Below are positions 1-47,240 of a DNA stretch of 64,000 bases, in pieces. The notes beneath the pieces were generated by a model. That model saw nothing but the letters and a program-made list of their open reading frames with translations, was not told where the DNA came from and ran no database searches. Made by a program: the position numbers and the translations under genes. Position 1 is the stretch's first letter. Each line of letters begins with the position of its first letter. Location of the stretch: the NCBI GenBank assembly GCA_963826115.1, contig CAWGVS010000003.1, positions 145,211 to 209,210 of the forward strand. The letters run 5' to 3'. The stretch is from an uncultured Candidatus Rokubacteria bacterium (lineage in GTDB: Bacteria; Methylomirabilota; Methylomirabilia; Rokubacteriales; DASRDR01).

Positions 1-744
1 GCGGAAAGAGGACTGGATCGCTTGCTCGGCAGCGTGGCGGGCTCGGGCCTCAAGGTCCGCCTCCGCCTCGAAGAGGGACCGCCGGCTCCACGGATCCTCG
101 ACATCGCAAGCCAAGAGGCCGCCGACATTCTCGTGGTCGGCACGCACAGCCGCACGGGTCTCCGACGGGCCATGCTCGGGAGCATCGCCGACCGGATGGT
201 CCGCCAAGCGAGGTGCCCGGTCTTGACGGCCCGGCCTCAACCGGATGCTGCGCCTCCTGTCCAGATTCGTCGGATCTGCTACGCCACCGACTTCTCCCCG
301 ACCGCCCGCGCCGCCTGGTCGTGGGTGGTCGCGATCGCCGGTGCCGCGAACGCCGAGGTCGACCTCGTTCACGTCACGTTCGAGCCGGTGGCCGACCGTC
401 ACATGCCCGCGGAGATGACCGGGCGCATGGCCCGGTTCCTCCGCGAGCAGGGCCACATGGAAGTCGAGCGGTTCCTGCAGCGGTCCACGCTGCCACGTGA
501 GCGGATCCACGTGCACCTGTCCCCCGGAGTCCCGGGGGAGCAGATCGTCCATCGCGCTCTGGAGCGAGCCGCCGATCTCATCATCATGGGTACCCACGGC
601 TGGTCCGGGGTCGTTCGCTGGGTGCTCGGTTCAGTCGCTCACTACGTGATCCAGACCGCGCCGTGCCCGGTGCTCACCATCGCGCCGGCCGGGGCACCGG
701 GGGAATCGGGCGCAGGGACAGCGGCGGCGGGGATCACGCGATGA
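1..744 (+). CDS. Tandem universal stress protein, 5' end outside the window
   Basis: Two USP signatures (DILVVGTHSRTGLRRAMLGSIA; DLIIMGTHGWSGVVRWVLGSVA...APCPVLT); frame open to the window edge. Confidence 0.9.
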   Translation, partial: AERGLDRLLGSVAGSGLKVRLRLEEGPPAPRILDIASQEAADILVVGTHSRTGLRRAMLGSIADRMVRQARCPVLTARPQPDAAPPVQIRRICYATDFSPTARAAWSWVVAIAGAANAEVDLVHVTFEPVADRHMPAEMTGRMARFLREQGHMEVERFLQRSTLPRERIHVHLSPGVPGEQIVHRALERAADLIIMGTHGWSGVVRWVLGSVAHYVIQTAPCPVLTIAPAGAPGESGAGTAAAGITR

Positions 745-1169
745 AGCCCATGCCCCATCACTACACGGTCCGGATCGCCGGGGGCCCGAGCGGTCCCGCG
801 CTCGCCATGGCTGACGGTCTGCCCGACCTCGGAAGCGCACCGCCCCCCGAGTTCGGTGGCCCCGGCGGCGCGTGGAGCCCGGAGCACCTCCTGTTGGCTG
901 CCGTGGAAGCGTGCTTCCTGTTCACCCTGCGAGCCGTCGCGCGGGCCTCGCACGTCGAGTTCGAGACGTGCGAGGTGACCGCCGAAGGGACCGTCGACCG
1001 CACGGACGGTGTGACGCGCTTCACGGACATCCTCCTGCGGCCGCGTCTCAGGCTCGCGACCGGGACGGATCCGGACCGGGCACGGCGGGCCATGGAAAAG
1101 GCCGAGAAGGCGTGTCTCGTCTCGGCTTCGCTCGTGACGCCGGTCCGGCTCGAGGCTGAGCTCGCCTAG
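741..1169 (+). CDS. OsmC/Ohr-family protein
   Basis: PPEFGGPGGAWSPEHLLLAAVEACF and a second Cys in ACLVSASL; ATGA overlap with the USP stop. Confidence 0.9.
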   Translation: MKPMPHHYTVRIAGGPSGPALAMADGLPDLGSAPPPEFGGPGGAWSPEHLLLAAVEACFLFTLRAVARASHVEFETCEVTAEGTVDRTDGVTRFTDILLRPRLRLATGTDPDRARRAMEKAEKACLVSASLVTPVRLEAELA

Positions 1170-1223
1170 CGCTGACCAGCCTTCTGTCCCCTCGCCCGTC
1201 TCGCGCCGCCAACGCCCGTCGCG

Positions 1224-1985
1224 TCACTCCAGAACCGCCAGAAGCCCCATCACACCCATCCCCAGCGTCATGAGGCCGATCTGCAGGAGCGCCCCGCGGC
1301 CGGTCCGGTCGTGCTGGAGCTCCGGGATCAAATCGGCGGCCGCAATGTATACGAAGCCCCCGGCCGTGATCGGGACCAGCAGCCCCGTCACCGCCGCCCC
1401 AAAGACCGCGCCCAGCAGCAGCGCGGCGACGGCTCCCAGGATGGCCGCGCTGGCCGACCCGAGGTTCAAAAGCACCGCCCGTCGCACGCTGAGTCCGCTG
1501 TGAATGAGGATGCCGAAGTCGCCGAGCTCCTGCGGGATCTCGTGGAAGAGCACGGCGACAGTCGTCGCCAGGCCGAGAGCTGGGCTCACGAGATAGCTCC
1601 CCGCGATCAGGACGCCGTCGATGAAGTTGTGGATCGCGTCCCCAAGAACGTTCACGGCAGCCAGCTCCGGGCGCGCGATCGACTCCGGATGATGGTACCG
1701 GTGGAGCAGGCCGTGCTCGTGCCGCAGCAGCTTCTCGACCGCGAAGAACAGCAGCATCCCGCCCAGAATCAGGAGCGATGGCCGCAGCGTGGCCGCGTCC
1801 TGCTTGAGGGACTGTGGGATGAGGTGGATGAACGCATCGCCGAGCAGCGCGCCCACCGCGAAGCTCACGAGGAAGGCGGCGAGACGGCGCGTACGCGCTT
1901 CGTCAAGGGACAGGGTCACGAGACCCACCAGGGAGACCAGGCTGACGACTCCCACACTCACCAGACTCAAGATGGCGTTGGTCAT
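1224..1985 (-). CDS. ZIP-family metal (zinc) transporter
   Basis: HNFIDG and HEIPQE motifs, His-rich loop, several TM segments. Confidence 0.93.
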   Translation of the reverse strand: MTNAILSLVSVGVVSLVSLVGLVTLSLDEARTRRLAAFLVSFAVGALLGDAFIHLIPQSLKQDAATLRPSLLILGGMLLFFAVEKLLRHEHGLLHRYHHPESIARPELAAVNVLGDAIHNFIDGVLIAGSYLVSPALGLATTVAVLFHEIPQELGDFGILIHSGLSVRRAVLLNLGSASAAILGAVAALLLGAVFGAAVTGLLVPITAGGFVYIAAADLIPELQHDRTGRGALLQIGLMTLGMGVMGLLAVLE

Positions 1986-2163
1986 CGCATGCCGCAGTGA
2001 AACGGCCCCTGCGAACACGCCGCCGTCCCAGCATGCGCCTCGGGGACGATGGCCGACCGCGCCGGGCTCGTCACCGCCCCCGCCGAGCTGGGCCGAGCTT
2101 TCGGTCGGGGCGCCGGTCTCGTCGCGGCCTGCGCATCCATCCCCCCGAGGCTCTCGAGTCCAT

Positions 2164-3114
2164 TCAGCTGGCCCGTCGTCCCGTCCGACTCGGCGGCCCT
2201 AGTTCGCCCTTCGCGCCAGAATCCCCCTCCCTGGGCGTGTCGGGTGCCAGCCCAAAGAGCCTGCCCGCAGTCCGGGCTCGGTGCTGCGGCTTGGCTAGCT
2301 CCCGGACACGCCCGTCCTCGATCAACAGGATGCGGTCGGCCTCCTGAGCGAGGCGGTCGTCATGAGTGATCATGATGAACGCGACTCCGTGCTCGCGGCT
2401 CATCTCCCGCATCAGGGCGAAGACCTCTTCACCGGCGCGGCTGTCCAGGTTCCCGGTCGGCTCGTCGGCCAGGATGATCTTCGGGGCGTTTGCCAGCGCC
2501 CGCACGATGGCACAGCGCTGGTTCTGGCCACCGCTCATCTCGCCGGGTCGCTTGTGCAGCTCCCCCTCGAGCCCGACCCGGCGCAGGAGTCCCACGACAC
2601 GCGCCCGCTGAGCGTCGGTGACGCCTCCGCATCGGATGATGATGGGCATCAGGGCGTTCTCCAGGCAGCTGAACTCGTCGAGCAGGTAATGGAACTGGAA
2701 CACGAATCCGATCTCGTCGCTCCGGAAGTCGGCCAACCCATCGTCGTCGAGCCCACCGATGTCCACGCCGTTGATCACGACCGAACCGCCCGTGGGCGTG
2801 TCCAGGGCTCCGAGGAGGTTGAGAAGCGTCGTCTTCCCACTGCCCGACTGGCCGACGATCGCCACGAATTCGCCTGATCGGATCTCGAGGTCGACGCCGT
2901 GCAGAACCGGCACCGGCACCTTGCCACCATAGGTCTTCCGAAGATCGCGCGTCTCCACCACGACCGGCCCGGCAACCCGCGACTCGTCATCACCGGGGTC
3001 AGAAGACCCGGCGGGATCGACCTCCGAGGGCGCCGGGCTGTCGGCGTCGGCGGGTCGTCGGCCTTGGGGCCCCGGGCCGGGACCGAGCGGGCGGCCTTGA
3101 TCCGATGGCTTCAT
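2164..3114 (-). CDS. ABC transporter ATP-binding protein (LolD/MacB-like)
   Basis: Walker A GQSGSGKT, signature MSGGQ, ILADEPTGNLD; start uncertain. Confidence 0.93.
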   Translation of the reverse strand: MKPSDQGRPLGPGPGPQGRRPADADSPAPSEVDPAGSSDPGDDESRVAGPVVVETRDLRKTYGGKVPVPVLHGVDLEIRSGEFVAIVGQSGSGKTTLLNLLGALDTPTGGSVVINGVDIGGLDDDGLADFRSDEIGFVFQFHYLLDEFSCLENALMPIIIRCGGVTDAQRARVVGLLRRVGLEGELHKRPGEMSGGQNQRCAIVRALANAPKIILADEPTGNLDSRAGEEVFALMREMSREHGVAFIMITHDDRLAQEADRILLIEDGRVRELAKPQHRARTAGRLFGLAPDTPREGDSGAKGELGPPSRTGRRAS

Positions 3115-4376
3115 CGCATCACGTCCACCGGGTTCAGCCGCGCGGCTCGGCGGGAGGGCAGATAGGCCGCCAGCACCGTCGCGACGATCGCCGCGCCCAC
3201 GGCCAGGCCGATGTAGGCGGGCAGGATCGCCACCGGGAAGAACTGCTCGGGCAGCTGCCCCGGCCGATACGGGGGCTGTTCGATCCGCCCGAGGAGGAAG
3301 ACGATCAGCGTGCCGACGACCGCCCCGATCGCACTTCCCGCGAAGGCGATCCCCAGGCCCTCGAGTACGAAGATGCGCAGGATCTGGCGCCGCCGAGCGC
3401 CGATCGCCTTCAGGATGCCGATCTGCTTGGACTTCTGCAGCACCGAGACGATGAGCACGGACGCGATGGCGAACGACGAGGCGACCAGGCTGAAGATCGA
3501 GATGAGATACGCGGTCGCGCTCTGCATCCGGAGCCGGTCCAGGAAGACCGGAAACTCGCGCGACCAGGACTTTGCCTCGTACGGCACGAGTCCCATGATC
3601 TGGTCCGCGATCTCGTCTGCGCTGTAGATGTCGCGCAGCTTCACGTACACGATGTTGACGGCGGTCCCCAGTCCGAACAGGCTCTGGGCCGTGCGCAGGG
3701 TGATATAGGCGTCGCCGCGACCCTGGCCGCGACTGTAGATGCCCACGATGGTGAACGTCTCGGACGCCCCGGTGTTCGACAGGAGCCGGATGCGCTCGCC
3801 CATCACCAGGTTCAGGTCCTTCGCGAGCTCCGTGTCCACGACGATCTCGTCGCTTGCGAGATCCCGGAATCGGCCCATCACCATGTACTTCGTGATCGGA
3901 GTGACCTCGTCCTGGAGCACCGGATCCGCCCCGACGACACCGACCCCGACGGCGTGACTGCCCTTGGACGCGAATCCCTGCTGCCGGACGACGGGGTTCA
4001 CGAGGGCCACACCGGGCAGGGCCCGGATCGTCTCGGTCACGCGCGGCCAGTCGTCGATGTCCTTCTGCTGGGGCGCTAGCTGGTCAATGCGGCTCGAGCT
4101 CGGTCCCGGTGGGGCGCCTGGAACCTCGGCCAGCGGGGTCGGCTTGGGATCCTCGACGCGGATGGTCACGTGCGGAATGGCCTCGGTCAGGAGGGCGGTC
4201 AGCTTCCGGTGGAGGCCGAAGATCAGCGCCGTGACGAAGATCACGATGATCACTGCGGCGGCGACCGCGCTGATCGTCAGCCACGTCTGGCCGCCGCCCG
4301 ATCGAAGGTGACGGGCGGCCACCAGGAGCTCGAAGCGAAGCCCCGGCCGGCGCGCCGCGGGCCGCTCCCCGCTCAC
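3111..4376 (-). CDS. ABC transporter permease (LolC/E, FtsX/MacB family)
   Basis: IGILKAIGA and C-terminal PSRRAARLNPVDVMR; GTG start overlaps the upstream stop (GTGA). Confidence 0.9.
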   Translation of the reverse strand: MSGERPAARRPGLRFELLVAARHLRSGGGQTWLTISAVAAAVIIVIFVTALIFGLHRKLTALLTEAIPHVTIRVEDPKPTPLAEVPGAPPGPSSSRIDQLAPQQKDIDDWPRVTETIRALPGVALVNPVVRQQGFASKGSHAVGVGVVGADPVLQDEVTPITKYMVMGRFRDLASDEIVVDTELAKDLNLVMGERIRLLSNTGASETFTIVGIYSRGQGRGDAYITLRTAQSLFGLGTAVNIVYVKLRDIYSADEIADQIMGLVPYEAKSWSREFPVFLDRLRMQSATAYLISIFSLVASSFAIASVLIVSVLQKSKQIGILKAIGARRRQILRIFVLEGLGIAFAGSAIGAVVGTLIVFLLGRIEQPPYRPGQLPEQFFPVAILPAYIGLAVGAAIVATVLAAYLPSRRAARLNPVDVMR

Positions 4377-5785
4377 CGCCCCCCTCGCTCGCTCGAGGAA
4401 CGGATTCGGACGCGGTCCCCAGGATGGATCGCCACGGGGTTCGTGATCACGCGGTCGTCGAGGCCGAGTCCGCCCACTACGGGAACGCCGTCCTTCGTAG
4501 GCGGTCGCGTCTGGACCATCTTCTCGACCGCGCGAGAGTTCTGCACCACCAGCACGACGGTCCGGTCCCCGACCCGACGTAGCGCCACCGCCGGCACCAG
4601 AATTCGTTGCGCGGCCGGGTTGGTCACGATGTTGACGTTGACCGTCTGCCCGGGACGCAGCCACCCCGGTGGCTTGTTCGGCACGACGGTCACCATGATC
4701 GTCCCGCGCGTCTGATCGACAGCGGCGGCGATCTCGGAAACGGATCCCGCGAACGTGGATCCGAGGAACGTGCCAGAGGAGATGACCGCGGACTGGCCGA
4801 CCGCAAGATCAGCGAGATTGGTCTCGTCGACGTCCACGTGGATCTCCAGCTCGTTGCTGACCAGCCGCAGGACGCCCTGGGCTCCCACCGTCTGGCCCAC
4901 CTCGGCATTGATCGCCGTCACCACCCCGCCGAAGGGCGCGAGCACGACCGCCTCCTGCGCCTGGCGACGAGCCACCGCCAGGGCTCGCTCGGATTCCCGC
5001 ACGCGCTCCCGGGCGATCGCGACGTCTTCCGGTCGAGCGCCGACCTCCAGCGTCCGCAGCCGAGCCTCCTGGACTCCGACGTTGGCCTCGGCGGCGGCCA
5101 CTCCTCCGCGGAACGCGCGCACGACGGTCTCGGCGACGGCAACCGCCTGCCGCTGGGCAGCGACCTGCTGCTCCACCACGCGGGAGCGGGTCAGAGCTTC
5201 GTCGTGCTCGGCCCTGGCGACGAGCCCGCGCTCGAGCAGCCGCTCGGCCCGCTCCAGCTGACGGGCAGCCAGCTCCCGCTCAGCCTGGTGCTGAGCGAGC
5301 TGAGCCTGCGCCTGAACGACGGTCTGTTCGGCCTGGGCCAGCGACGACTGCTGCTGAGCGAGTTGGGCGCGGGCCTGCTGGACCTGCGCCGTCGCGGCCT
5401 CGAGCTCGGACGGCAGCGCGCCGCGCGCCACCTGAACCAGCGTGGCCTGAGCGGTCGTCAGGGCCGCCTCCGCCTGCGCAACCCGGGCCTCGGCAACGTC
5501 GCTCTTGATGAGCGCCAGCCTCTGACCCGCCGAGACCCGTTCCCCTTCCTGAACGTAGAGCCGCTCCACGACTCCGGCCGCCTGGGCCCCCGCGAGCGTC
5601 TCGGTGACCCCGCGGACCCGTCCGCTGCTGGCGATCGATTCGATGATGCTGGCGGGCACCGGCCGAGCGACGGACACGTCCTTGGCCCGCTGCCCCCACC
5701 AGATCCCGGCTCCGACCGTCAGGACTCCCAGCAGGACCAGGGACATGATCCAGGAGCCCCTGAGTCTAGGCACAGTCCTCTCCAT
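4373..5785 (-). CDS. Efflux periplasmic adaptor subunit (HlyD/MacA family)
   Basis: N-terminal TM, lipoyl halves (GVVERLYVQEGERV; APFGGVV), long coiled coil. Confidence 0.9.
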   Translation of the reverse strand: MERTVPRLRGSWIMSLVLLGVLTVGAGIWWGQRAKDVSVARPVPASIIESIASSGRVRGVTETLAGAQAAGVVERLYVQEGERVSAGQRLALIKSDVAEARVAQAEAALTTAQATLVQVARGALPSELEAATAQVQQARAQLAQQQSSLAQAEQTVVQAQAQLAQHQAERELAARQLERAERLLERGLVARAEHDEALTRSRVVEQQVAAQRQAVAVAETVVRAFRGGVAAAEANVGVQEARLRTLEVGARPEDVAIARERVRESERALAVARRQAQEAVVLAPFGGVVTAINAEVGQTVGAQGVLRLVSNELEIHVDVDETNLADLAVGQSAVISSGTFLGSTFAGSVSEIAAAVDQTRGTIMVTVVPNKPPGWLRPGQTVNVNIVTNPAAQRILVPAVALRRVGDRTVVLVVQNSRAVEKMVQTRPPTKDGVPVVGGLGLDDRVITNPVAIHPGDRVRIRSSSERGGR

Positions 5786-5799: not shown

Positions 5800-5815
5800 T
5801 GCAATGGCTCTGCCA
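5800..5815 (-). promoter_or_regulatory. Sigma-54 promoter motif for the efflux operon
   Basis: TGGCAG-AGCCA-TTGCA (GG-N10-GC), 15 bp before the start codon. Confidence 0.7.
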
Positions 5816-5869: not shown

Positions 5870-5907
5870 GGGGGTCCCGGCTACCCACCCGAGGCACGAT
5901 CGCCCCA
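5870..5907. promoter_or_regulatory. Putative tandem enhancer (UAS)
   Basis: GGGGGT-N6-TACCCA and CGAGGC-N6-GCCCCA, 20 bp apart. Confidence 0.4.
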
Positions 5908-6039: not shown

Positions 6040-6528
6040 CTAGTTGGGTGTCGTCTGGCCTGGACCTCCGCCAAGACGCCGGAGGAGTTGATCCAGGAAG
6101 CCGCGCTGTCCCTGGATGATCCGGTCCCGGGCCTCGTCAATCAGAAACCAAGCGGCGCGGTCAACCTCGGGGAACTCCTGGACGTGGCCCGAGCGGGGTG
6201 GCCACTCGATCGCGAACGTGTTGCTCCTGATCGCCGCCGGGTCACAGTCCCCCTCGACCGCCCAGGCGTGGATGATCTTCCCGCCGGGTTGCCTGATCGG
6301 CATCAGGGATAGGAAGGCACCCGATATCTCGGCGCCCGTCTCCTCGAGAAGCTCCCGCCGCGCTGCGCCGAGAGGCTCCTCGTCGGGCCGGACCTCGCCC
6401 TTGGGAATGGACCAGGCCCCCAGGTCCCTCGACTGCCAGAAGGGTCCTCCCGGGTGCACCAGGAACACCTCCCAAGCCGCGGGTCCACGCCGGTAGACCA
6501 GAACGCCCGCGCTACGCTTTCTCGGCAC
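6040..6528 (-). CDS. NUDIX hydrolase
   Basis: Nudix box GEVRPDEEPLGAARRELLEETG; HPGGPFW and FPEVDRA family motifs. Confidence 0.9.
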   Translation of the reverse strand: MPRKRSAGVLVYRRGPAAWEVFLVHPGGPFWQSRDLGAWSIPKGEVRPDEEPLGAARRELLEETGAEISGAFLSLMPIRQPGGKIIHAWAVEGDCDPAAIRSNTFAIEWPPRSGHVQEFPEVDRAAWFLIDEARDRIIQGQRGFLDQLLRRLGGGPGQTTPN

Positions 6529-6584: not shown

Positions 6585-6812
6585 CTAAACAGGCTCCCGC
6601 CCCAGGTCCTCCTCGACATCCCCCTGCGAACGCCGACAGTGGTCACACCGCGTTCGGAGCCACAGGTTCCCGTCCGCATCCTCAGGGCCGCGGCTCTCCG
6701 CATGGATCAAGCCGCCACACGGGCAGGCTTCGGGGTACTCCTCGAGACATTCGGGGCATTGGGCATCTCCGACGTGGTGAACGACTTCTTCCTCGACCGC
6801 AAAGAACTGCAT
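6585..6812 (-). CDS. Small Cys-rich, probably metal-binding protein (75 aa)
   Basis: GGAGG RBS; CPEC, CPCGGLIH, CDHC; own sigma-54 motif upstream. Confidence 0.7.
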   Translation of the reverse strand: MQFFAVEEEVVHHVGDAQCPECLEEYPEACPCGGLIHAESRGPEDADGNLWLRTRCDHCRRSQGDVEEDLGREPV

Positions 6813-6838: not shown

Positions 6839-6854
6839 CGCAACCGCGGTGCCG
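6839..6854 (-). promoter_or_regulatory. Sigma-54 promoter motif
   Basis: CGGCAC-CGCGG-TTGCG, 27 bp before the 6812 start. Confidence 0.6.
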
Positions 6855-39228: not shown

Positions 39229-39265
39229 GGGGCAGGAGCGCCCCACCGACCCGGTCAATGCCCCA
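39228..39265. promoter_or_regulatory. Putative tandem enhancer
   Basis: Perfect TGGGGC-AGGAGC-GCCCCA (39228-39245) plus a GCCCCA half-site 20 bp later. Confidence 0.55.
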
Positions 39266-39318
39266 CTGTCGGCCTGAGAGCCCGCGCATATCCCACGATC
39301 CGGCAGGCTTTTCTCTTC

Positions 39319-39334
39319 TGGCATCGCAGTTGCT
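39319..39334 (+). promoter_or_regulatory. Sigma-54 promoter motif
   Basis: TGGCAT-CGCAG-TTGCT. Confidence 0.78.
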
Positions 39335-39530: not shown

Positions 39531-40664
39531 GTGGCCCATGCCATGACGCTTGCCGAACAAATCGCACGCTTGTCGAAGCTGGAACAGACCGGTGCACCGG
39601 TGGTGAGCGCTTACCTGAACACGCAATGGACGGACGAGCACCAGCGCGAGCGGACGCGGCTCTTCGTCAAGGGCGAAATCCGCCGCGCGCGGGCGACAGG
39701 TCTGGCTGGCCTGGCGAAGGCCCTCGACTGGATCGAGGCGCAAGCGGAGGCGATCCTCAGCCCGAGCCACGCCAAGGCCCACGGCGTCGCGCTCTTCGCC
39801 TGCCCCGACGTCGGCCTCCGGGAGATGATCTCGGTTCGGGCGCCCCTGGAGAACATGGTCGTCGTGGGCGATCGGCCTTTCCTCGGCCCGCTCGCCGCCG
39901 CGCTGGCGGAAGCTCCTCCCCTGCTGGTGGTGTTCGTCGACGAGGAGAGCGCGCGACTGATCCCCGTTCTCGATGCCGGACCTGGCGAGGAGATTCACCT
40001 GAACAGCGAGGTGCCCGGCCATCACCGGCGTGGCGGCTGGGCGCAGCTCGCCCTGGGCCACTATCAGCGCCACATCGAGGAGCGCCGCGGCCGGCATCTC
40101 GAGGCGGTGGCGGAAGCGCTCGGCCGAGTCGTGGAGGAGCACCATATTGAGCGGATCGTGATCGGCGGGACCAGCGACAGCACGGCGGCCCTTCGCCGAG
40201 CGCTGCCCGCGGCGGTCACCGCGAGGGTCGCGGGGGTCGTGTCCGGGCGTCGACATGAGCCGGCAAGCGAGCTCGTCGCCCGGGCCGTTGAGCTGATCGG
40301 CCGCGTCAACACCGAGGAGGTCGCGGCTGCCGTCGATGGGCTCCTGACCCAGGCGGCCAAGGGTGGCCATGCTGCGGCGAGTCTCGAGGGCGTGCTGGAA
40401 GCCGTGCAGCGCGGGGCCGTCGATCGGCTCTATCTCCTGCGGACCTTCCGGGAGCGCGGGCGAGCGTGCACCACATGCCCCGCCCTCCAGCCGGGAGACG
40501 TGGCGACATGCCGGATATGCGGCCAGGCTTCGATCGCGGTCGAGCTCGACGAGGCAATGGTGAGCCGGACGATCGCGGCGGGCGGAGGCGCCACGATGGT
40601 CGACGCCCACGCCGCGCTGGGGGCGGTCGGTGGCGTCGCCGCTCGATTGCGCTTCGTCTCGTAG
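39531..40664 (+). CDS. Bacterial archaeo-eukaryotic release factor (baeRF/aeRF1-like) protein
   Basis: VVSAYL, GVALFA, HRRGGWAQ at the GGQ-loop position, CxxC...CxxC insert, C-terminal GGVAARLRF. Confidence 0.82.
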   Translation: MAHAMTLAEQIARLSKLEQTGAPVVSAYLNTQWTDEHQRERTRLFVKGEIRRARATGLAGLAKALDWIEAQAEAILSPSHAKAHGVALFACPDVGLREMISVRAPLENMVVVGDRPFLGPLAAALAEAPPLLVVFVDEESARLIPVLDAGPGEEIHLNSEVPGHHRRGGWAQLALGHYQRHIEERRGRHLEAVAEALGRVVEEHHIERIVIGGTSDSTAALRRALPAAVTARVAGVVSGRRHEPASELVARAVELIGRVNTEEVAAAVDGLLTQAAKGGHAAASLEGVLEAVQRGAVDRLYLLRTFRERGRACTTCPALQPGDVATCRICGQASIAVELDEAMVSRTIAAGGGATMVDAHAALGAVGGVAARLRFVS

Positions 40665-40673
40665 CGGTAGCCC

Positions 40674-41984
40674 GTGCGGTCTCCCGTTCGTGTCCTGATT
40701 CTGGGAGCCGCGGGTCGAGACTTCCATAACTTCAACGTTGTCTACCGGGACGACCCGGCGACGGAGGTCGTGGCGTTCACGGCGGCCCAGATCCCGGGCA
40801 TCTCGGGTCGCCGATACCCGCCGAAGTTGGCCGGGCCGCGCTATCCGGCCGGTATTCCGATCGAGCCGGAAGAGGCCCTCGACAGGCTGGTCCGCGAGCA
40901 TACCGTCGACCTCGTGGTGCTTGCTTACAGCGATCTCAGCCACGAGCAGGTCATGCACCTCGCGAGCCGCGCGCTGGCGGCCGGTGCCGACTTCGCCCTC
41001 CTGGGGCCGCGGAGGACCATGCTCCGCTCCGCGCGGCCGGTCGTCGCCGTCACGGCCGTCCGGACCGGTTGCGGGAAGGGAGCCGTGAGTCGACGGGTCG
41101 TGGACATCCTCCGGGGGCGGGGGCGGCGGGTCGCGGTCGTGCGGCACCCGATGCCTTACGGCGATCTCGGAGCCCAGCGGGTCCAGCGCTTCGCCACGCT
41201 CGCCGATCTCGACCGAGCCGAGGTGACGCTGGAGGAGCGTGAAGAGTACGAGCCGCACCTGGAGAAGGGGGTGGTGGTGTGGGCCGGCGTCGACTACGCG
41301 GCGATCCTGGCGCGCGTGGAGGCCGAGACGGACGTCATCGTCTGGGACGGCGGGAACAACGATCTGCCCTTCTTCACCCCCACGATCCACATGTGTCTGG
41401 TCGATCCGCACCGCTCCGGGCATGAGTCGCGTTTCCATCCCGGGGAGACGAATCTCCGGCTTGCGGATGTCGTGATCGTCGTCAAGGAAGACACGGCGGA
41501 CCCCGTCCAGATCGAGGCGGTCAGAGTGGCGGCTCGGTCCCTCAATCCGCGCGCCCGGCTCGTCGACACACGGTTCCCCCTCCGGGTCGAGGCACCCGAG
41601 CGCCTCCAGGGCCGCCGGGTGCTCGCCGTCGACGACGGCCCCACCCTGACGCACGGCGGCCTGCCGGCGGGGGCGGCCGAGCTGGCGGCCCGACGATTCG
41701 GCGCGATCCTGGTCGATCCCCGCCCGTACGCTCGGGGCAGCATCCAGCGAGTGTTCGACGACTACCCGATGCTCGGAGCCGTTCTCCCCGCCGTCGGCTA
41801 CGGTGCCCAGCAAATGGCGGAGCTTCGCGCCACGATCGACGCGGTGCCATGCGATTTCGTCCTCCTGGGGACGCCGATCGATCTCGGCCGCGCGCTGGCG
41901 CTGCGCCATCCTGTGATCCGGGTGCGCTACGAGGTCGAGGAGGTCGGACGCCCGACCCTTGACGAGGTCCTCGGAGACCTCTAG
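40674..41984 (+). CDS. P-loop protein of the ArcE arginine synthetase / cyclic 2,3-diphosphoglycerate synthase-like family
   Basis: ILGAAGRDFHNFN, AFTAAQIP, AVRTGCGK, RHPMPYG, EEREEYEPH, WDGGNND, DGPTLTHGG. Confidence 0.82.
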   Translation: MRSPVRVLILGAAGRDFHNFNVVYRDDPATEVVAFTAAQIPGISGRRYPPKLAGPRYPAGIPIEPEEALDRLVREHTVDLVVLAYSDLSHEQVMHLASRALAAGADFALLGPRRTMLRSARPVVAVTAVRTGCGKGAVSRRVVDILRGRGRRVAVVRHPMPYGDLGAQRVQRFATLADLDRAEVTLEEREEYEPHLEKGVVVWAGVDYAAILARVEAETDVIVWDGGNNDLPFFTPTIHMCLVDPHRSGHESRFHPGETNLRLADVVIVVKEDTADPVQIEAVRVAARSLNPRARLVDTRFPLRVEAPERLQGRRVLAVDDGPTLTHGGLPAGAAELAARRFGAILVDPRPYARGSIQRVFDDYPMLGAVLPAVGYGAQQMAELRATIDAVPCDFVLLGTPIDLGRALALRHPVIRVRYEVEEVGRPTLDEVLGDL

Positions 41985-42012: not shown

Positions 42013-43395
42013 TCAGGCCTTGATGCCGTGCTTGGTCAGCAAGCGATGAAGCGTCTTCCGGTCGATGCCGGCCGACTTCGCGGCCTGCGAGATGTTGCCC
42101 CCGTGTCGTCGGAGCAGGTCGGTCAGGTACCCCTGCGCGAAGGTATGCAGCCAGGCCTCGCGAGCCTGGGCGAGAGGCAGGTTCGTGCCCGGAATCGCCG
42201 GGCCCGGGCGACCTCTCCCGCGAATGTGGTCCGGGAGATCCCGGACCCGGATCATCGGCCCGTCCGTGAGCGCGCAGGCGCGCTCGATCACATTCTGGAG
42301 CTCGCGGACATTGCCCGGCCAGGCGTGGGCCTCGAGGCGCGCGAGCGCCTCCGTCTCGATTCCCTCGAGCGGCCGCTCGCGGTTCCGCCCGTAGCGGCGC
42401 AGGAAATGGTGCGCCAGAAGGCCCACGTCACCTGCCCGCTCGCGCAGAGGTGGCAACATGATCGTGATCACATTGACCCGGTAGAAGAGATCGTCGCGAA
42501 ACTCGCCCTTCCGGACGAGCTCCGCAGTGTCGCGGTTGGTCGCGGACACGAGCCGAATGTCCACATTCACGAACTTGATCCCGCCGACGCGGCGGATCTG
42601 CCGCTCCTGGAGCGCCCGGAGAAGCTTCGACTGGAGCGCCTTGGGCAGCTCGCCGATCTCGTCGAGAAAGAGCGTGCCCCGATCGGCGACCTCGATCATC
42701 CCCGGCTTGCTGCGGTCCGCACCGGTGAACGCGCCACGCTCGTGACCGAACAGCTCGGATTCGAGCAGGGCATCGGGCAGCGCGGCGCAGTCCACGGGAA
42801 CGAACACCTCGGCGGCCCGCGCGCTCTGGGCATGGATCGCCCGGGCAATCAGCTCTTTCCCGGTCCCCGACTCGCCCTGGATCAGGATGTTGGCCTCGGA
42901 TCGGGCCGCCTTCTGGACGAGCTCGAACACCGCCGTCATGACCGGGCTCTTGCCAATGACATTGTCGAACCCCGCGCGTGGCGCGAGCGGCTGGCGAAGC
43001 CGGCGATTCTCTTCGATCAGACGGCGCCGCTCGGCTGCGCGCTCGACGGCGATGCGGAGCACGTCATTGGACGGTAGTGGCTTCAACAGATAGTCGAACG
43101 CCCCTGCCCGCATGGCGTCGACGGCAGACTCCACCGTCCCGTGCCCCGTAATCATGATCACCACGACGTCGGGATCGAGCTCGAGGGCGCGAGCGAGCAC
43201 CTGCATCCCGTCGACCCGCGGCATCTTGAGATCGGTGAGAACGACGTCCGGGCACTCGCTCTCGAGGAGCGCCATCGCCCGCTCCCCGTCGGTCGCCGTG
43301 ATGCAAGGATAGTCCTCACGGCCGAGGAGCCTTGCCCAGTTGGCGACGACGTCCGGCTCGTCGTCCACGATCAGTACTCGTGGCTTCGTGCTCAT
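42013..43395 (-). CDS. Sigma-54-dependent response regulator (NtrC/AtoC-type enhancer-binding protein)
   Basis: Receiver; GESGTGKE; ESELFGHERGAFTGA; LFLDEIGE; WPGNVRELQN; Fis-type HTH. Confidence 0.97.
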   Translation of the reverse strand: MSTKPRVLIVDDEPDVVANWARLLGREDYPCITATDGERAMALLESECPDVVLTDLKMPRVDGMQVLARALELDPDVVVIMITGHGTVESAVDAMRAGAFDYLLKPLPSNDVLRIAVERAAERRRLIEENRRLRQPLAPRAGFDNVIGKSPVMTAVFELVQKAARSEANILIQGESGTGKELIARAIHAQSARAAEVFVPVDCAALPDALLESELFGHERGAFTGADRSKPGMIEVADRGTLFLDEIGELPKALQSKLLRALQERQIRRVGGIKFVNVDIRLVSATNRDTAELVRKGEFRDDLFYRVNVITIMLPPLRERAGDVGLLAHHFLRRYGRNRERPLEGIETEALARLEAHAWPGNVRELQNVIERACALTDGPMIRVRDLPDHIRGRGRPGPAIPGTNLPLAQAREAWLHTFAQGYLTDLLRRHGGNISQAAKSAGIDRKTLHRLLTKHGIKA

Positions 43396-43464
43396 GGCGC
43401 GCCCACGAGGGATCAGGGTAGCACGGCACGGCCAAAACTGGCCGCGCCGCACGTCGGCGGGCCG

Positions 43465-43707
43465 TCAGGCGGGAAGGTTCTCCGGGACCGCGAGCGTCGT
43501 GTAGTCCACGAACCCGTAGTCGACGGGTCGCTTGAGCTTCCAGACGTCCCGATCGGTGAGGAAGACCCAGGAGATGCGCGTCATGACCAGCGCGACGCCC
43601 GACGGCCGGAGAGCCGGATACGCGTCAGGGGACCGAAGGTCCGCGAGCATCGAGCGCGCCGGCTCATCGCTCGCCATGGTGTCGTCCAGCTTGCCAGACC
43701 CCCTCAT
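43465..43707 (-). pseudogene. N-terminal fragment of an Rv2004c-like (APH-kinase/AAA) protein
   Basis: PDAYP...TRISWVFLT...KLKRPVDYGFVDYTTL resembles the family N-terminus, then stops. Confidence 0.7.
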
Positions 43708-44087
43708 CCACCTCCATCCGTCACCAGCGGGGGTAAAACTCGTTTGATGGCATCGAGGAACGCCCCGTTCGAGAACGGCTTCGCCAGGTAGACCTCAGCG
43801 CCGCTCTCCGTCGCCGCCTGCCTCGTTTGGGGGGAGTCGTACCCAGTGATCAGGATCACCGGGATCGGCGGCACCTGGCGGCGGGCGTGACGGGTCACGG
43901 CCAGACCGTCCGCCCCGGGGAGCCGGAGATCCGCCACGACCAGATCCGGCCGTTCCCGGTCGATCATCGCCATCGCGTCGGGCCCCGTGTGGGCCCGAAG
44001 GGAGGCGTGACCGATCCTCTGGAGAAGGCGTTCACAGTTCGCGACAAGATCCGGCTCGTCATCGACAACCAAGATGGTTCGAGGCAT
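43704..44087 (-). CDS. Single-domain response regulator, paralog of 36333-36740
   Basis: TILVVDDEPDLVANC, VADLRLPG, YLAKPF; alternative start 44099. Confidence 0.9.
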   Translation of the reverse strand: MPRTILVVDDEPDLVANCERLLQRIGHASLRAHTGPDAMAMIDRERPDLVVADLRLPGADGLAVTRHARRQVPPIPVILITGYDSPQTRQAATESGAEVYLAKPFSNGAFLDAIKRVLPPLVTDGGG

Positions 44088-44107
44088 CGTCACCGCCATG
44101 CGATGAA

Positions 44108-44123
44108 AGCAATCAGGATGCCA
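44108..44123 (-). promoter_or_regulatory. Sigma-54 promoter motif
   Basis: TGGCAT-CCTGA-TTGCT. Confidence 0.78.
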
Positions 44124-44184: not shown

Positions 44185-44221
44185 TGGGGCGCCGCCGTCC
44201 CTATGGGTGCCCATCGCCCCA
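44185..44221. promoter_or_regulatory. Putative tandem enhancer between divergent sigma-54 promoters
   Basis: TGGGGC-N6-GTCCCT and TGGGTG-N6-GCCCCA, 19 bp apart. Confidence 0.55.
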
Positions 44222-44273: not shown

Positions 44274-44289
44274 TGGCACCGCCGTTGCT
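44274..44289 (+). promoter_or_regulatory. Sigma-54 promoter motif
   Basis: TGGCAC-CGCCG-TTGCT. Confidence 0.8.
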
Positions 44290-44463
44290 CCCGGAGCAGT
44301 CTGACGATCAGCAGGGGCCCGGCCGGGCGAGGTACCATGCTGGTGACCGGTGGCGAGATCATGGCCCGCGCGGTCATCCGGGGCCGGTTCGAGATCGGGC
44401 TCGGCAACCAGCCTCACGCGCCTGCCGAAGCCGTGGATTCTCCACCCAGGGAACCCGGAGGAG

Positions 44464-44810
44464 ATGATGACGCGCGCCGAAATCTCCCGCATTGCTCTGA
44501 TCTGCCTGTTGGCCGCGGGTCTCTGGACTCATCGGTGACCCGGCTCGACGCGCAGAGCCGAGCGGCGCTCGTCACGCAGGGACGGCAGCTCTACACGGAC
44601 AAGGGCTGCTACGGCTGTCACACGGTGGGGGCCACCGGGACGCCCATCGCCCCGGACCTCCGCCGCGCGGCCACCCGCTATCCGGAGGCCAGTCTGGCGC
44701 GGTGGCTGCGTGACCCATCCGCTCAGGAACCAACGCGCCACATGCCGAATCTCGACCTGAGCGAAGCCGAGGCGAGCGCCCTCGCCGCTTACCTGGCCAC
44801 GCTCCCGTGA
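44464..44810 (+). pseudogene. Monoheme cytochrome c with a frameshift in the signal peptide (near 44528)
   Basis: GGAGGAG RBS + MMTRAEISRIALICLLAAGLW in one frame; CYGCH...HMP domain in another. Confidence 0.85.
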
Positions 44811-45142
44811 GAGCGACGCCCGCGAGGGCGCGTCGACATGTCCACGACAGGCCATGCGGACAGGTTCCGCGTGTGGCCTGACGGCAGCCCACAAGCTGAT
44901 GGTGATCGAGGAGGGAACGATGCCACGTCCACGAAGCCCGCTTCAGCCGCCCCGGTCGAAGAAGGCCGGTCAACCGCCTCAGGAGCTCGCGGTCAGCCCA
45001 CGGGTTCGCCGACGACAGAAGACTGCCACGACTGCGGTCCGCAAGGACACGACGATCTCTCAGCCCGCGCAGGATCCTCGCGCGCGCTGGCCGGCGTCGA
45101 AGCCGAAGTTCTCGAAGCGGTGACGGTCTCCCCCGTCCGGCC

Positions 45143-46355
45143 GTGATCGTCCTGGCCCTGAACTGCGGGAGCTCGTCGCTCAAGTTCCAGGTCTTCGCCC
45201 ATGACCCCGCGGCGTCGTCGGGAGATGCCCGGCGCCTCGCCCGCGGCGGCGTCGACCGCATCGGGGACGAGGCGACCCTCGCCTTCCAGGCGGAAGGAAG
45301 CCCGGCGACTCGGACGCGCGAGCCCATCCGGGATCATGAGGTCGCAGTCCGCCAGGTGCTCGGCTGGCTGGCCGCGGGCGGGGCGTCACCGCACGGAGAC
45401 GCGATCCGGATCGACGCGGTCGGACACCGTGTAGTCCACGGAGGCGACCGCTTCAGGGAGTCCGTCCTGATCGACGCAGGACGTGCTGGACGCGATCCGG
45501 GCGCTCGAGACGCTGGCGCCGCTCCACAACGCCCCGAGCCTCGTGGGCATCGAGGCCGCCCGAGCCGCGCTCGGCCCCGACGTCCCCATGGTCGCCGCCT
45601 TCGACACGACCTTTCACGCCTCGATGCCCGAGCACGCGTATCGCTATGCCATCCCCCACGAGCTGGCCCTGACGCATCGCGTCCGACGCTACGGCTTCCA
45701 CGGACTCGCCTACCGCTCGGTCCTTGCCCGCTACGCTCAGGTGGTCGGAGGGCCGCGCGACCGCGTCACCATTGTCGCGTTTCACCTCGGGAACGGCTGC
45801 TCGGCGGCCGCGATCAAGGATGGGCGCTCGATCGATACCTCCATGGGCCTCACACCCCTGGAAGGTCTCGTGATGGGGACCCGGTCGGGCGACGTCGATC
45901 CCGCGCTGATCGGCTATCTCGCGCGCGTGGAGGGCGTGCCCGCCCAGGAGGTCGAGCGGTGGCTCAACGAGCGCGCCGGGCTACTCGGCCTGTCGGGCCG
46001 GAGCCGCGACATGCGGGACCTGCTTGCGCACGAGGGGGACGACCCGCGGGCCCGGTTGGCGGTGGACGTCTTCTGCTACCGGGCCCGCAAGTACCTGGGC
46101 GCCTACCTGGCGACGCTGGGCGGGGCCGACGCGGTCGTGTTCAGCGGCGGCATCGGCGAGCACGCCCCCGCGGTGCGCGCCCGCATCTGCGCCGGGATGG
46201 AATGGTGCGGCCTGGTCCTGGATCCCGGGCGCAACGCCGCCGCGGTCGGGCGCGAGGCTCGCCTGACCCCCGACGGGGCCGCCCTCCCCGCCTACGTGAT
46301 CCAGGCCGACGAGGAGCGGATGATCGCCCAGGATGTCGTGGAGCGGGTCGCATGA
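45143..46355 (+). pseudogene. ackA: Acetate kinase with one frameshift near 45479
   Basis: LALNCGSSSLKF, GHRVVHGG; then LAPLHN, FDTTFH, RYGFHG, HLGNGCS, GTRSGD, FSGGIGE. Confidence 0.93.
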
Positions 46356-46528
46356 AGCGGCGGATCCCGCTGCCGATGGCCGCCGTCGGCGGCTTCGCGG
46401 CCCTCGGGCTGGCCCTGGGGCACCGGCGGGCGGGCCGGTGCACGGACGCCTCACCGCCAGCCGTGAATTCGAAGGGCGCCGCGCCCCCTGAGTCCCACGA
46501 AATCGACCCATCCTCACCTAGTCCGTAC

Positions 46529-46544
46529 GGGCATTCCGGTTGCA
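46529..46544 (+). promoter_or_regulatory. Sigma-54 promoter motif
   Basis: GGGCAT-TCCGG-TTGCA; enhancer-like TGGGGC (46416) and CGGTGC-N6-GCCTCA (46436) upstream. Confidence 0.65.
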
Positions 46545-46596
46545 CGGGCGAATGAGGGCGGGGTAGGCCATCAAGCTCCGCGGAAAGGACACGCCC

Positions 46597-47070
46597 ATGT
46601 ACAGGCGCATGCTGGTTCCCCTCGATGGCTCCGAGGTGGCCGAAGCCATCCTGCCCTTCGCCGAGCAGGTCGCCGGCCCACTCGATGCAGAGGTCGTCCT
46701 CCTCCGCGTCATCGAGCCGCTCTCTCCGGTCGAGCTCGTGGCTACCGCCGGGGTCGTTGCCCCGGATACCTTCACGCTCCGAGACATCGAGGCGGAGAAG
46801 TACCTCTCCGAGATCCAGCGCCGGCTATCCAAGAAGGGCCTCCGTGTTCGCACCCGTGTCGCACTCGGCGGCACTCCGGCGGAGGAGATACTCGCGGCCG
46901 TCCAGGCCACCAACGCCGACCTCATCGCCATGACCACACACGGCCGGTCCGGTCTGGGCCGAGCGCTGTTCGGATCCGTGGCCGAATCCGTGCTCCGCGC
47001 CTCGGCGGTGCCGGTGCTGGTGGTGCGAATGCCCGCCACGCACAAGCCCGCACCCGAGAAGACGGAGTAG
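46597..47070 (+). CDS. Universal stress protein
   Basis: MLVPLDGSEVAE...DLIAMTTHGRSGLGRALFGSVAE...VPVLVV. Confidence 0.93.
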   Translation: MYRRMLVPLDGSEVAEAILPFAEQVAGPLDAEVVLLRVIEPLSPVELVATAGVVAPDTFTLRDIEAEKYLSEIQRRLSKKGLRVRTRVALGGTPAEEILAAVQATNADLIAMTTHGRSGLGRALFGSVAESVLRASAVPVLVVRMPATHKPAPEKTE

Positions 47071-47136
47071 CATTTCGATCGGTGGGTGCGCTTTGCACCA
47101 CTTCAGTCACGAGGGACTGATGCCTGAAGGCCAGGG

Positions 47137-47240
47137 ATGAGAGTCAGCGAGCTGATGAGCCGGGGCGTGGTCACGATCGATGCTTCCGCGACGTGTCTCG
47201 AGGCCGTGAATCGAATGTGCCGTCGGAAAGTCCGCCACGG
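47137..47240 (+). pseudogene. Truncated CBS-domain gene marking the island's right edge
   Basis: MRVSELMSRGVVTIDASATCLEAVNRMCRRKVRH, then similarity is lost. Confidence 0.7.

Follow-up and report, generated by a model that had tools for sequence, protein, structure and literature searches.

Background

The locus described here raises the question of whether a cluster of genes resembling the dormancy regulon of Mycobacterium tuberculosis has been brought under sigma-54 control in an uncultured Candidatus Rokubacteria bacterium and, if so, whether the cluster is run as a single regulon. The DNA analysed is a stretch of 64,000 nucleotides (nt) from assembly GCA_963826115.1 (contig CAWGVS010000003.1; G000:C3:145211-209210 in the notation used here), referred to below as the window; its right end is the end of the contig. 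An initial annotation, made from the letters alone, had described the first 47 kb as a DosR-like dormancy island wired to sigma-54. The present analysis indicates that this block of genes is probably one sigma-54 low-oxygen survival regulon, run by its own NtrC-type activator by way of a shared upstream inverted repeat, or dyad, and a haem-PAS kinase.

The genome is a metagenome-type assembly of 6.24 Mb, 99%-complete with an estimated contamination of 5.3%, and the block makes up 0.76% of it. Genes were called with a codon log-odds model trained on the genome itself and families were named by Pfam. The comparison set consisted of 40 related genomes, 24 of which have an orthologue of the block's activator (61-95% identity) and 15 only paralogues at about 48%, while one, G029, is ambiguous. 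One of the 15 genomes lacking the orthologue, G038, is unpublished; no positive claim depends on it. The G+C content of the window is about 70% and the borders of the block show no compositional break. Despite the metagenome-type assembly, relatives show the same architecture, an argument for the block being native to a Rokubacteria-type lineage.

Sigma-54 promoters of the block

The initial annotation had listed 15 intergenic -24/-12 motifs. A motif of the GG(N10)GC type was present at all 15 positions, on the strand that faces the next gene, and the one at 34053 did have TG in place of GG. Compared with the consensus TGGCAC-N5-TTGCW, 11 of the 15 sites had at most one mismatch, three had two (6839, 25964 and 46529) and the site at 29712 had three. 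At the threshold of one mismatch the window contained 12 matches where 0.86 (standard deviation 1.07) were expected, a number reached in none of 100 shuffles; the twelfth match, at 35280, is intragenic and lies outside the 15 listed sites. When GG and GC were required and at most one mismatch was allowed, the genome had 93 intergenic, oriented sites. Nine of these were located in the block, compared with 0.70 expected (Poisson p=6e-8), so the density of the motif is well above background. Two good sites are not among the nine: 14576, where the gene caller set a start codon at too great a distance upstream, and 34053, which has no GG.

The annotation had also reported no motif between 47.3 and 64 kb. 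This was correct at one mismatch or fewer, the threshold at which no site was found in the window to the right of 47.3 kb, and did not hold at two, where a weak site appeared between genes (55570) and a further site within a gene (59228). The genome has an intact rpoN, a 508-aa open frame with a Sigma54_DBD match at E=8e-60. In addition, a gene-model-free scan uncovered a sixteenth promoter at w-299, that is, to the left of the window, which has a 1-mismatch dyad 113 nt upstream and serves the tandem USP gene at the window's left edge.

Other dense clusters of good sigma-54 sites were observed in the genome at C10:86-135 kb and C3:12-20 kb. They are devoid of the dyad and probably belong to the regulons of other activators.

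A separate observation concerns the distance between promoter and start codon. At 23 of the 117 sigma-54 sites in the genome (at most one mismatch), an ATG or GTG that opens an open reading frame of at least 80 codons lies exactly 13-15 nt past the motif, compared with a background of about 1.9 per offset (hand count, offsets 19-60). Four sites in the window behave in this way, 5800(-), 14398(-), 14576(+) and 44108(-). Since this distance leaves no room for a Shine-Dalgarno sequence, roughly one fifth of the sigma-54 transcripts of the organism look leaderless. A literature search found no paper, in the accessible text of those retrieved (PMC3616915 included), that ties leaderless mRNAs to sigma-54.

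A phased dyad upstream of the promoters

A shared sigma-54 motif alone does not make one regulon, so a common activator site was sought. The half-site GCCCCA/TGGGGC occurred 15 times in 2.5 kb of promoter-upstream DNA, where its frequency in the other intergenic DNA (625 kb) would predict 1.8 copies (p=9e-10), and the half-sites pair to form an 18-bp palindrome, TGGGGC-N6-GCCCCA. Only four perfect copies of the dyad were found genome-wide, all intergenic: two in the block, at 26064 and 39228, and two at C6:956-959 kb, where they coincide with three sigma-54 sites located by an independent scan. A dyad with at most two mismatches was present 40-200 nt upstream of 11 of the 15 listed promoters, as opposed to 26 of 1191 control intergenic segments. 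The gene-model-free scan gave a similar picture, with a dyad at 11 of 21 sigma-54-like sites in the block and 17 of 595 elsewhere; on the wrong, downstream side the counts were 0 of 21 and 10 of 595, respectively. With the promoter at w-299, the dyad is carried by 12 of 16 promoters, 61-115 nt upstream.

The distances from the centre of the dyad to the -24 box cluster near 61, 70, 81, 92 and 113 nt in this genome, and also near 102 nt in relatives. For 18 dyad-promoter pairs in this genome, the Rayleigh R was 0.71 at 10.5 bp (best period 10.7), a value that none of 5000 random sets reached. The 19 pairs taken from relatives gave R=0.68, also unmatched in 5000 random sets, and eight pairs taken only from the more distant relatives gave 0.77 (p=0.006); these p-values are optimistic because orthologous promoters are not independent. 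If the DNA loops to bring an activator into contact with sigma-54 polymerase, a periodicity of about 10.5 bp is to be expected. At several promoters a second dyad or half-site lies about 20 bp from the first, as would be expected for an activator that assembles from dimers. The arrangement resembles that of NtrC-family activators, which use inverted repeats about 70-150 nt upstream in a face-of-helix-dependent manner.

The activator and its conservation in relatives

The protein encoded at 42013-43395, which had been annotated as a GAFTGA-containing enhancer-binding response regulator, proved to have the REC-AAA+-HTH_8 architecture, with Pfam matches to Response_reg (1e-27), Sigma54_activat (2e-69) and HTH_8 (2e-6) and an intact GAFTGA loop in its translation. 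It scored below every NCBIfam equivalog cut-off, those of ZraR and GlrR included (AtoC, the best, 464 vs 714 bits; NtrC, 391 vs 559; NtrX, 388 vs 600). In the Pfam scan it was the only protein of the block with a DNA-binding domain. Because of this, because its own operon carries a sigma-54 promoter and dyads, and because the activator and the dyad-promoter composite co-occur in relatives, the activator is predicted to bind the dyad.

The closest named relatives of the activator, at 77% identity, are from Rokuibacteriota and Methylomirabilota assemblies. Apart from a contig at 87%, described below, the remaining ones are at the level of paralogues (<50%), save for a Binataceae sequence at 58% (L030, DATLRA010000082.1), which nests inside the orthologue clade among Rokubacteria sequences; no sigma-54 site with one mismatch or fewer was found in the 13.7 kb around it. 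Perfect or 1-mismatch dyads phased with sigma-54 sites surround the orthologue in G014, G008, G007, G019, G036, G031 and L027. The last of these (DASZOP010000203.1) is a 12-kb contig labelled Gemmatimonadota, with an activator 87% identical that is nested within the clade of the window's genus; the contig also carries a perfect dyad with a promoter, and its label could stem from a binning error.

G014 is syntenic across nearly the entire block, and USP, CBS and receiver-only genes form a core that is kept beside the activator across the order. When the promoter of the baeRF gene was aligned in four genomes and that of the regulator operon in three, the dyad, the extra half-site and the -24/-12 boxes were invariant and the spacers diverged. 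The exact composite (perfect dyad, 50-108 nt, TGGCA-N6-TTGC) was found in 18 of the 24 orthologue-bearing genomes and in none of the 15 that lack the orthologue. Within the window's genus the corresponding figures were 9 of 10 and 0 of 4. The ambiguous genome G029 has one copy, on the same contig as a partial 60% activator match. The composite adjoins the orthologue in, for example, G002, G003, G004, G006, G008, G009, G014 and G023, and a reversed pattern used as a control gave no match in all 41 genomes. The enrichment of the motif, the phased dyad shared by the promoters, the conservation of the boxes and the co-occurrence of composite and activator together largely support the proposal that the whole block is wired to sigma-54.

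The kinase

The sensor of the system is likely to be the histidine kinase encoded at 36937-38643 (+), in which Pfam recognised PAS, GAF, HisKA and HATPase domains, as had been annotated. Its start is probably the ATG at 36937; a longer open frame begins with low-complexity sequence. The description of the protein as soluble agrees with the translation, in which inspection by eye found no hydrophobic segment. Of the 15 solved chains that match the PAS domain at E<=0.01, 13 are haem domains of E. coli DosP/YddU or rhizobial FixL (E 3e-12 to 4e-8), whereas the best match in the PDB (E=3e-20) is a histidine kinase that is neither of these. The histidine in the query motif RPSH aligns with that in RPAH of DosP, residue 77 by count on the alignment; we take His77 of DosP to be the proximal haem ligand. 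The kinase core matches the NCBIfam FixL model weakly. The PAS domain appears to be of the DosP/FixL type, with putative haem binding, which lends support to a low-oxygen signal, and the block would be expected to be induced at low oxygen.

Full PAS-GAF orthologues of the sensor are found 4-9 kb from the activator in G002, G003, G004, G007, G008 and G014, and G022 and G023 have theirs at no more than about 1.6 kb. Among the more distant genomes, G030 and G032 have a kinase with a PAS of this type at most about 1 kb from the activator, and G036 and G019 have one at 15-18 kb. Altogether, 12 of the 24 genomes with the orthologue have a haem-PAS-type kinase within 20 kb of the activator on the same contig. 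No kinase match at 1e-25 was found in G005, G009, G010, G015, G024 or G025.

Extent of the block and satellite loci

The block is about 50 kb long and comprises about 46 genes and at least 16 sigma-54 promoters. The initial annotation had called it a self-contained regulon; it is indeed one compact block, but it begins about 3 kb to the left of the window and has at least one satellite on another contig. At the left, the phosphoketolase gene (C3:142116-144470, -) and the tandem USP gene point away from each other, and the dyad is located between the two. The satellite (L002, G000:C6:951751-962106) has three sigma-54 promoters and three perfect dyads. It encodes subunits I and II of a haem-copper oxidase, a cytochrome c, three CBS proteins, a formate/nitrite channel, an ADP-forming acetyl-CoA synthetase, a 528-aa protein with an AAA_33 domain and a cyclase-family protein.

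Candidate sites with a 1-mismatch dyad were also noted at C11:4509, C2:56076 and C5:626525. The one at G000:C11:4509 (L003) is a sigma-54 site with the dyad 81 nt upstream. It precedes kdpA/kdpB by about 250 nt and may be either another member of the regulon or a chance match.

Proposed mechanism

We infer that the activator binds the dyad, that the kinase feeds the activator, that oxygen is the signal and that the genes of the block are co-induced. In this mechanism the soluble haem-PAS/GAF kinase would sense the loss of oxygen, or another haem ligand or redox state, and phosphorylate the activator, which would assemble on the dyads, loop to sigma-54 RNA polymerase and open the promoters. The promoter of the activator's own operon is among these, so positive feedback would be expected. 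The two receiver-only proteins, themselves under block promoters, may act as phosphate sinks or relay steps. The output would be a survival programme that includes the nucleotide-sensing USP and CBS proteins. Ribosome hibernation would be served by two different factors, HPF and one of the Balon/Rv2629-like kind that is accompanied by a GTPase. Stored glucan could be converted to ATP in the absence of respiration by glucan phosphorylase, PfkB, aldolase, phosphoketolase and acetate kinase. Phosphoenolpyruvate (PEP) synthase, a chaperonin, ion pumps and efflux would also belong to the output, and the satellite locus, with the same promoter architecture, would add an oxidase, cytochrome c, acetyl-CoA synthetase, a channel and CBS proteins.

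Gene and promoter map of the block

The cargo families named in the initial annotation, USP, CBS, PfkB, erythromycin-esterase, P-type ATPase and baeRF/Rv2629-like, were all recovered by Pfam; the block has six USP genes, two of them tandem, and four CBS genes. Family assignments below are from Pfam, promoters from the motif scan and dyads from the dyad scan unless stated otherwise.

The tandem USP gene at the left edge, with two Usp domains, starts outside the window at C3:145007 (w-203) and occupies positions 1-744 (+). It is followed by a gene for an OsmC-like protein (741-1169, +) and, on the other strand, by a ZIP metal transporter gene (1224-2018, -) of uncertain operon membership. A MacAB-like efflux operon (2164-5785, -) encodes an HlyD-type fusion protein (4373-5785), an FtsX/MacB permease (3111-4376) and an ABC ATPase (2164-3114). 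Its start at 5785 is 15 nt past the motif of a 1-mismatch promoter (5800-5815, -), and a 2-mismatch dyad (5890-5907) lies 83 nt from the -24 box. A NUDIX hydrolase gene (6040-6528, -) is preceded by a small open reading frame (6585-6812, -), absent from the automatic gene calls, that would encode a Cys-rich protein of 75 aa with CxxC-like Cys pairs; it has GGAGG before it and comes directly after a weak sigma-54-like site at 6839-6854 (-), which has two mismatches and a best dyad with four.

A long operon (6893-14384, -) encodes, in order of transcription, an NTP-transferase (13359-14384), a BON protein (12577-13230), a class I aldolase (11528-12547), PfkB (10563-11531), a CBS protein (10121-10540), a fusion protein (8051-10084) and a protein (6893-8020) that matched no Pfam or NCBIfam family. 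The fusion protein, of 677 aa, joins a protein-L-isoaspartate O-methyltransferase (residues 20-220) to a full erythromycin-esterase domain (300-652), an arrangement that suggests a protein-repair role for the esterase-family domain. The promoter of the operon (14398-14413, -) has one mismatch, and the ATG is 14 nt past the motif. It shares a 2-mismatch dyad (14497-14514) with the divergent promoter at 14576-14591 (+), a perfect match; the distances are 92 and 70 nt, respectively. The operon served by the latter (14605-19452, +) has a GTG start 14 nt past the motif and encodes a tandem USP (14605-15486), a P-type cation ATPase (15572-18385) and an AIR-synthase-related protein (18403-19452).

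A second perfect promoter (19564-19579, +), the best dyad of which has three mismatches at 69 nt, precedes an operon (19651-25128, +) for the HPF/S30AE ribosome hibernation factor (19651-20070), a USP (20086-20550), Cpn60 (20654-22270) and an acyl-AMP ligase-carrier-acyltransferase (22348-25128). Genes for a CBS protein (25182-25619) and a DUF3175 protein (25624-25869) follow on the minus strand (25182-25869). They are preceded by a 2-mismatch sigma-54-like promoter (25964-25979, -), 93 nt upstream of which is the perfect dyad at 26064-26081. This dyad is common to the 1-mismatch promoter at 26142-26157 (+), where it lies 69 nt upstream, and a further half-site is located at 26045. Downstream (26238-29607, +) are the genes for a USP (26238-26684), a single CBS (27014-27226), an NAD epimerase (27393-28421) and an aminotransferase (28423-29607).

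The weak sigma-54-like site at 29712-29727 (+), with three mismatches and a best dyad with four, is followed by a gene (30047-30715, +) for a protein that matched no Pfam or NCBIfam family and has a 79% identical copy in G014. A cluster of half-sites (30719-30776), including a 1-mismatch dyad (30740-30757) at 113 nt, is associated with the 1-mismatch promoter at 30862-30877 (+), which precedes genes (30906-33913, +) for a USP (30906-31352) and PEP synthase (31438-33913). The PEP synthase is in two frames that overlap at 32261-32613, both recognised by Pfam, and both parts are present in G014 at 88-91% identity. Next, a 2-mismatch dyad (33955-33972) lies 89 nt from the sigma-54-like promoter with TG for GG (34053-34068, +), followed (34064-36313, +) by genes for a CBS protein (34064-34552 by the gene caller, probable start 34124) and an alpha-glucan phosphorylase-like protein (34604-36313).

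A receiver-only response regulator gene (36333-36713, -) has a 1-mismatch promoter (36750-36765, -) with a 2-mismatch dyad (36826-36843) at 69 nt; the kinase gene lies just beyond. A GNAT acetyltransferase gene (38680-39228, -) borders the element at 39228-39266, which consists of the perfect dyad (39228-39245) and a half-site (39260-39265) and is invariant in the four-genome alignment. This dyad is 82 nt upstream of a 1-mismatch promoter (39319-39334, +) for an operon (39531-41984, +) that encodes a baeRF family 10 protein (39531-40664), a distant member of the Rv2629 family and a candidate Balon-type ribosome hibernation factor by Pfam, NCBIfam and homologues, together with a protein of 436 aa (40674-41984). 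The latter matched no Pfam or NCBIfam family and has thousands of homologues, which carry the JGI/NCBI name 'predicted GTPase'. The pair recalls eRF1-eRF3 or Pelota-Hbs1 and may, by analogy, be a dedicated hibernation module.

The regulator operon (42013-44093, -) encodes a receiver-only response regulator (43704-44093), an unnamed 80-aa protein (43465-43707) and the activator. Its 1-mismatch promoter (44108-44123, -) and the divergent, perfect promoter at 44274-44289 (+) share two adjacent dyads (44185-44221) with two mismatches each. The plus-strand promoter serves a cytochrome c gene (44337-44810) and acetate kinase, from 45143 (44337-46355, +). Pfam matched only the N-terminal part of the frame from 45143, and the rest of acetate kinase presumably corresponds to the strongly coding frame 45483-46355, with a frame change near 45480. 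The breaks in PEP synthase and acetate kinase are either assembly frameshift errors or real pseudogenes. A sigma-54-like promoter with two mismatches (46529-46544, +), the best dyad of which has three mismatches at 84 nt, precedes the last gene of the block, a USP gene (46597-47070, +).

Comparison with known systems

DosR is a NarL/LuxR-type regulator that works with the housekeeping sigma factor, and the haem of DosS/T sits in the GAF domain. In contrast, the regulator of the block is a sigma-54 activator and the haem-type domain appears to be the PAS; no NarL/LuxR-type regulator domain was found by Pfam among the scanned proteins of the block. The DosR regulon is scattered over several loci, whereas the block is largely single. 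The two share a putative gas-sensing haem kinase and a regulator under the control of its own system. At the level of families, the cargo overlaps in several USPs, including tandem ones, and in CBS, PfkB, erythromycin-esterase-domain, P-type ATPase and S30AE/HPF-type proteins and an Rv2629-type factor; the DosR regulon table, as given in PMC5309233, lists Rv2029c/PfkB, Rv2030c, Rv2626c, Rv2629 and Rv2004c. Rv2629 and Balon are described as ribosome hibernation factors, often encoded in stress operons and beside RaiA (passages on gene context in PMC10901736).

The closest regulatory precedent appears to be NmpRSTU of Myxococcus xanthus, in which, according to the accessible text of PMC11841059, an NtrC-type activator and sigma-54 act at 7 promoters on 23 genes that are induced by hypoxia, with CBS, USP, P-type ATPase and cbb3 oxidase genes in the NmpR regulon. 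The two systems would have in common an NtrC-type regulator, upstream inverted repeats, control of the regulator's own operon, a haem-type kinase, extra receivers and a cargo of CBS, USP, P-type ATPase and oxidase, which in Myxococcus is of high affinity. They differ in the binding site (GCGCA-N5-TGCGC vs TGGGGC-N6-GCCCCA here), in the sensor (the protoglobin kinase NmpU vs a haem-PAS+GAF kinase) and in organisation, the Nmp genes being scattered, whereas here a single block has at least 16 promoters, about 46 genes, and ribosome hibernation and fermentative modules. In two myxobacterial genomes, the activators that share a contig with the protoglobin, taken as NmpR orthologues by gene linkage, are 46-49% identical to the block's activator and form a separate clade with 100/100 support; the point at which this clade joins was not resolved among the genome's paralogues. 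The system of the block is therefore not demonstrably orthologous to NmpRSTU.

The lxa locus of Burkholderia cenocepacia is described as a block of some 50 genes that respond to low oxygen by induction and are required if the cells are to survive anoxia, with a repeated Anr/FNR-like motif (TGA-N6-TCA) at 17 intergenic points and candidate regulators of the CRP/FNR family (main text of PMC3721108, in part). Like lxa, the present locus is a single block in which several USP genes are joined by genes for a cation ATPase, ABC transport and two-component proteins and in which one motif recurs between genes, the likeness of the cargo being at the family level. Unlike lxa, it has sigma-54 promoters and the activator dyad, with no FNR box in the promoter regions.

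On the side of the sensor, the kinase resembles FixL and DosP in its homologous PAS and in the histidine kept at DosP position 77. It differs from FixL/FixJ in its partner, an NtrC-type sigma-54 activator instead of the LuxR-type FixJ, and in its extra GAF domain. NtrY/NtrX also pairs a haem-PAS kinase with an NtrC-family regulator in the response to low oxygen; our search found no paper that documents this. NtrY is membrane-bound and NtrX lacks the GAFTGA contact, whereas the kinase of the block appears soluble and GAFTGA is intact in the activator, which falls short of the NtrX cut-off as given above.

The initial annotation had presented the system as undescribed. A literature search of titles and abstracts, with supplementary regulon tables outside its scope, gave, among the papers listed, none on Rokubacteria and none that describes such a sigma-54 block. 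In the accessible text of PMC12316311, USP genes belong to predicted sigma-54 regulons of Planctomycetia only, and Methylomirabilota, hypoxia and dormancy are not mentioned. The claim stands for this system, its site, its sensor and its scale, but not for the principle of a sigma-54 activator at low oxygen, which is in print for Myxococcus xanthus in the text of PMC11841059 referred to above. New here are the shared phased dyad, the sixteenth promoter and the haem-PAS match of the sensor; the system also stands out by the size and compactness of the block, by the regularity of its enhancers and by the DosR-like cargo in an uncultured phylum.

Alternative explanations

Several observations weigh against the reading of the block as a single low-oxygen regulon or limit it. 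1) At up to three mismatches no convincing sigma-54 promoter was found for the kinase, GNAT or phosphoketolase genes; for the kinase this is compatible with a constitutively made sensor. 2) The sites at 6839 and 29712 are poor sigma-54 matches, lack a good dyad and are the least certain of the set. 3) The likeness to the DosR cargo held for shared protein families, and the scores did not establish orthology with Rv2626c, Rv2623 or Rv2629. The CBS protein tested does not retrieve Rv2626c at E<=1e-5. The tandem USP matches, over its full length, the 2jax/3cis chains ('TB31.7'), which we take to be Rv2623, only at E=1e-8, and other USPs score better. The NCBIfam Rv2629 family matches the baeRF protein over the full length (E=3e-22), with 79 bits against a cut-off of 320. 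4) The exact composite is missing from six of the 24 orthologue genomes (G005, G020, G030, G031, G032 and G036), two of which, G036 and G031, carry 1-mismatch versions. 5) The co-occurrence of composite and activator would also be expected from the presence or absence of the whole block, and related genomes are not independent. 6) Around the activator orthologue in G005 and G010 (L121-L124) the dyad is a variant, TGGGGA-N6-(A/C)CCCCA, accompanied by a second conserved upstream motif, CTCACTGCGGTG-N5-TTCCyCA, 80-92 nt before promoters of the form TGGCTCG-N4-CTTGCT. In the activators of these two genomes, which represent two lineages only, V or S replaces R in DRKTLHRLL of the C-terminal HTH region; specificity may have drifted or another factor may be involved, and the circuit appears to have been rewired there.

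These points bear differently on the other explanations that can be offered. The same architecture might respond to a signal other than oxygen, such as nitric oxide (NO), carbon monoxide (CO), redox or energy state, and serve a programme for growth arrest or starvation in general. Since more than one gas can bind to haem-PAS domains, the kinase could report NO, CO, redox or cellular energy in place of oxygen, through this domain or through its GAF domain; moreover, USP, CBS, HPF, the Balon-like factor, chaperonin, OsmC and BON are general stress cargo. Balon genes occur in varied stress operons, according to the accessible text of PMC10901736. The named solved relatives of the PAS, DosP and FixL, are nevertheless oxygen sensors, the satellite adds a terminal oxidase, a cytochrome c and fermentative ATP-forming enzymes, and phosphoketolase and acetate kinase point to the formation of ATP free of respiration, so that we consider a non-oxygen signal unlikely, if worth keeping in view. 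It is quite improbable that the promoters are real but answer to several activators, the block being a neighbourhood of separate regulons in which the dyad serves a subset or another factor. Such an arrangement would account for the four of 16 promoters that have no dyad at two mismatches or fewer (6839, 19564, 29712 and 46529), for the second motif in G005 and G010 and for the some 27 matches to the activator family in the genome, which also make cross-talk possible. It is opposed by the phased dyad common to the other 12 promoters, by the syntenic position of 29712 in G014, where a 1-mismatch promoter is accompanied by a perfect dyad, by the composite that tracks the orthologue and by the finding of no other DNA-binding protein in the block.

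Control mainly by an FNR/Anr-type factor, as in lxa, or by an NmpR orthologue acting on a GCGCA-N5-TGCGC box is very doubtful. The resemblance of the cargo to lxa with its Anr-like motif and the control of CBS and USP genes by NmpR, both as described in the text cited above, speak for it, as does an excess of FNR-like matches at two mismatches (17 vs 4.65 in shuffles; consensus TTGAT-N4-ATCAA). There were none at one mismatch or fewer, however, and 16 of the 17 are in coding sequence, the remaining one lying in the gap between cytochrome c and ackA and none in 12 promoter regions; the excess probably stems from codon structure that is lost in dinucleotide shuffles. The Nmp box occurs at chance level (8 vs 9.17 expected) and in no promoter region, no protoglobin domain (PF11563) was found in the 99%-complete genome although control genomes respond, and the Nmp-linked activators are no closer to that of the block than its own paralogues are. 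That the motifs are functionless products of chance in DNA of 70% G+C can be discarded with near certainty. G+C-rich words are common in such DNA and three of the listed sites are weak, but the idea was ruled out by the shuffles, the genome-wide enrichment, the orientation of the sites, the dyad pairing with its wrong-side control, the phasing, the conservation and the empty reversed-pattern control. Control by the block's own activator and haem-PAS kinase, in response to low oxygen, thus remains the probable explanation.

Conclusions

Rokubacteria, though common in soils and aquifers, have so far escaped cultivation, and the block would offer a concrete and testable account of how they last through long periods of no growth. 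A sensor, a regulator and a binding site that obeys a spacing rule are all predicted, along with about 46 genes plus satellites, and the gene list could be used to read oxygen or energy limitation from the metatranscriptomes of soils. The 16 promoters in one genome, with dozens more in relatives, provide a clean natural data set for the effects of enhancer distance and helical phase in sigma-54 activation.

A broader proposal, which is possible and is offered tentatively, is that a DosR-type programme was assembled independently in Rokubacteria as a single block of about 50 kb under a haem-PAS kinase, an NtrC-type activator, sigma-54 and a lineage-specific, strictly phased enhancer. It would then join DosR (NarL type) and lxa (FNR type) as a third way of regulating such a programme, with all-or-none switching, with about a quarter of its units leaderless and with a Balon-like factor that may work with the co-transcribed GTPase instead of, or besides, EF-Tu. 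Similar survival cargo is found under three unrelated classes of regulator, NarL-type, FNR-type and sigma-54 activator, in three phyla, which argues that the cargo set itself is selected as a module.

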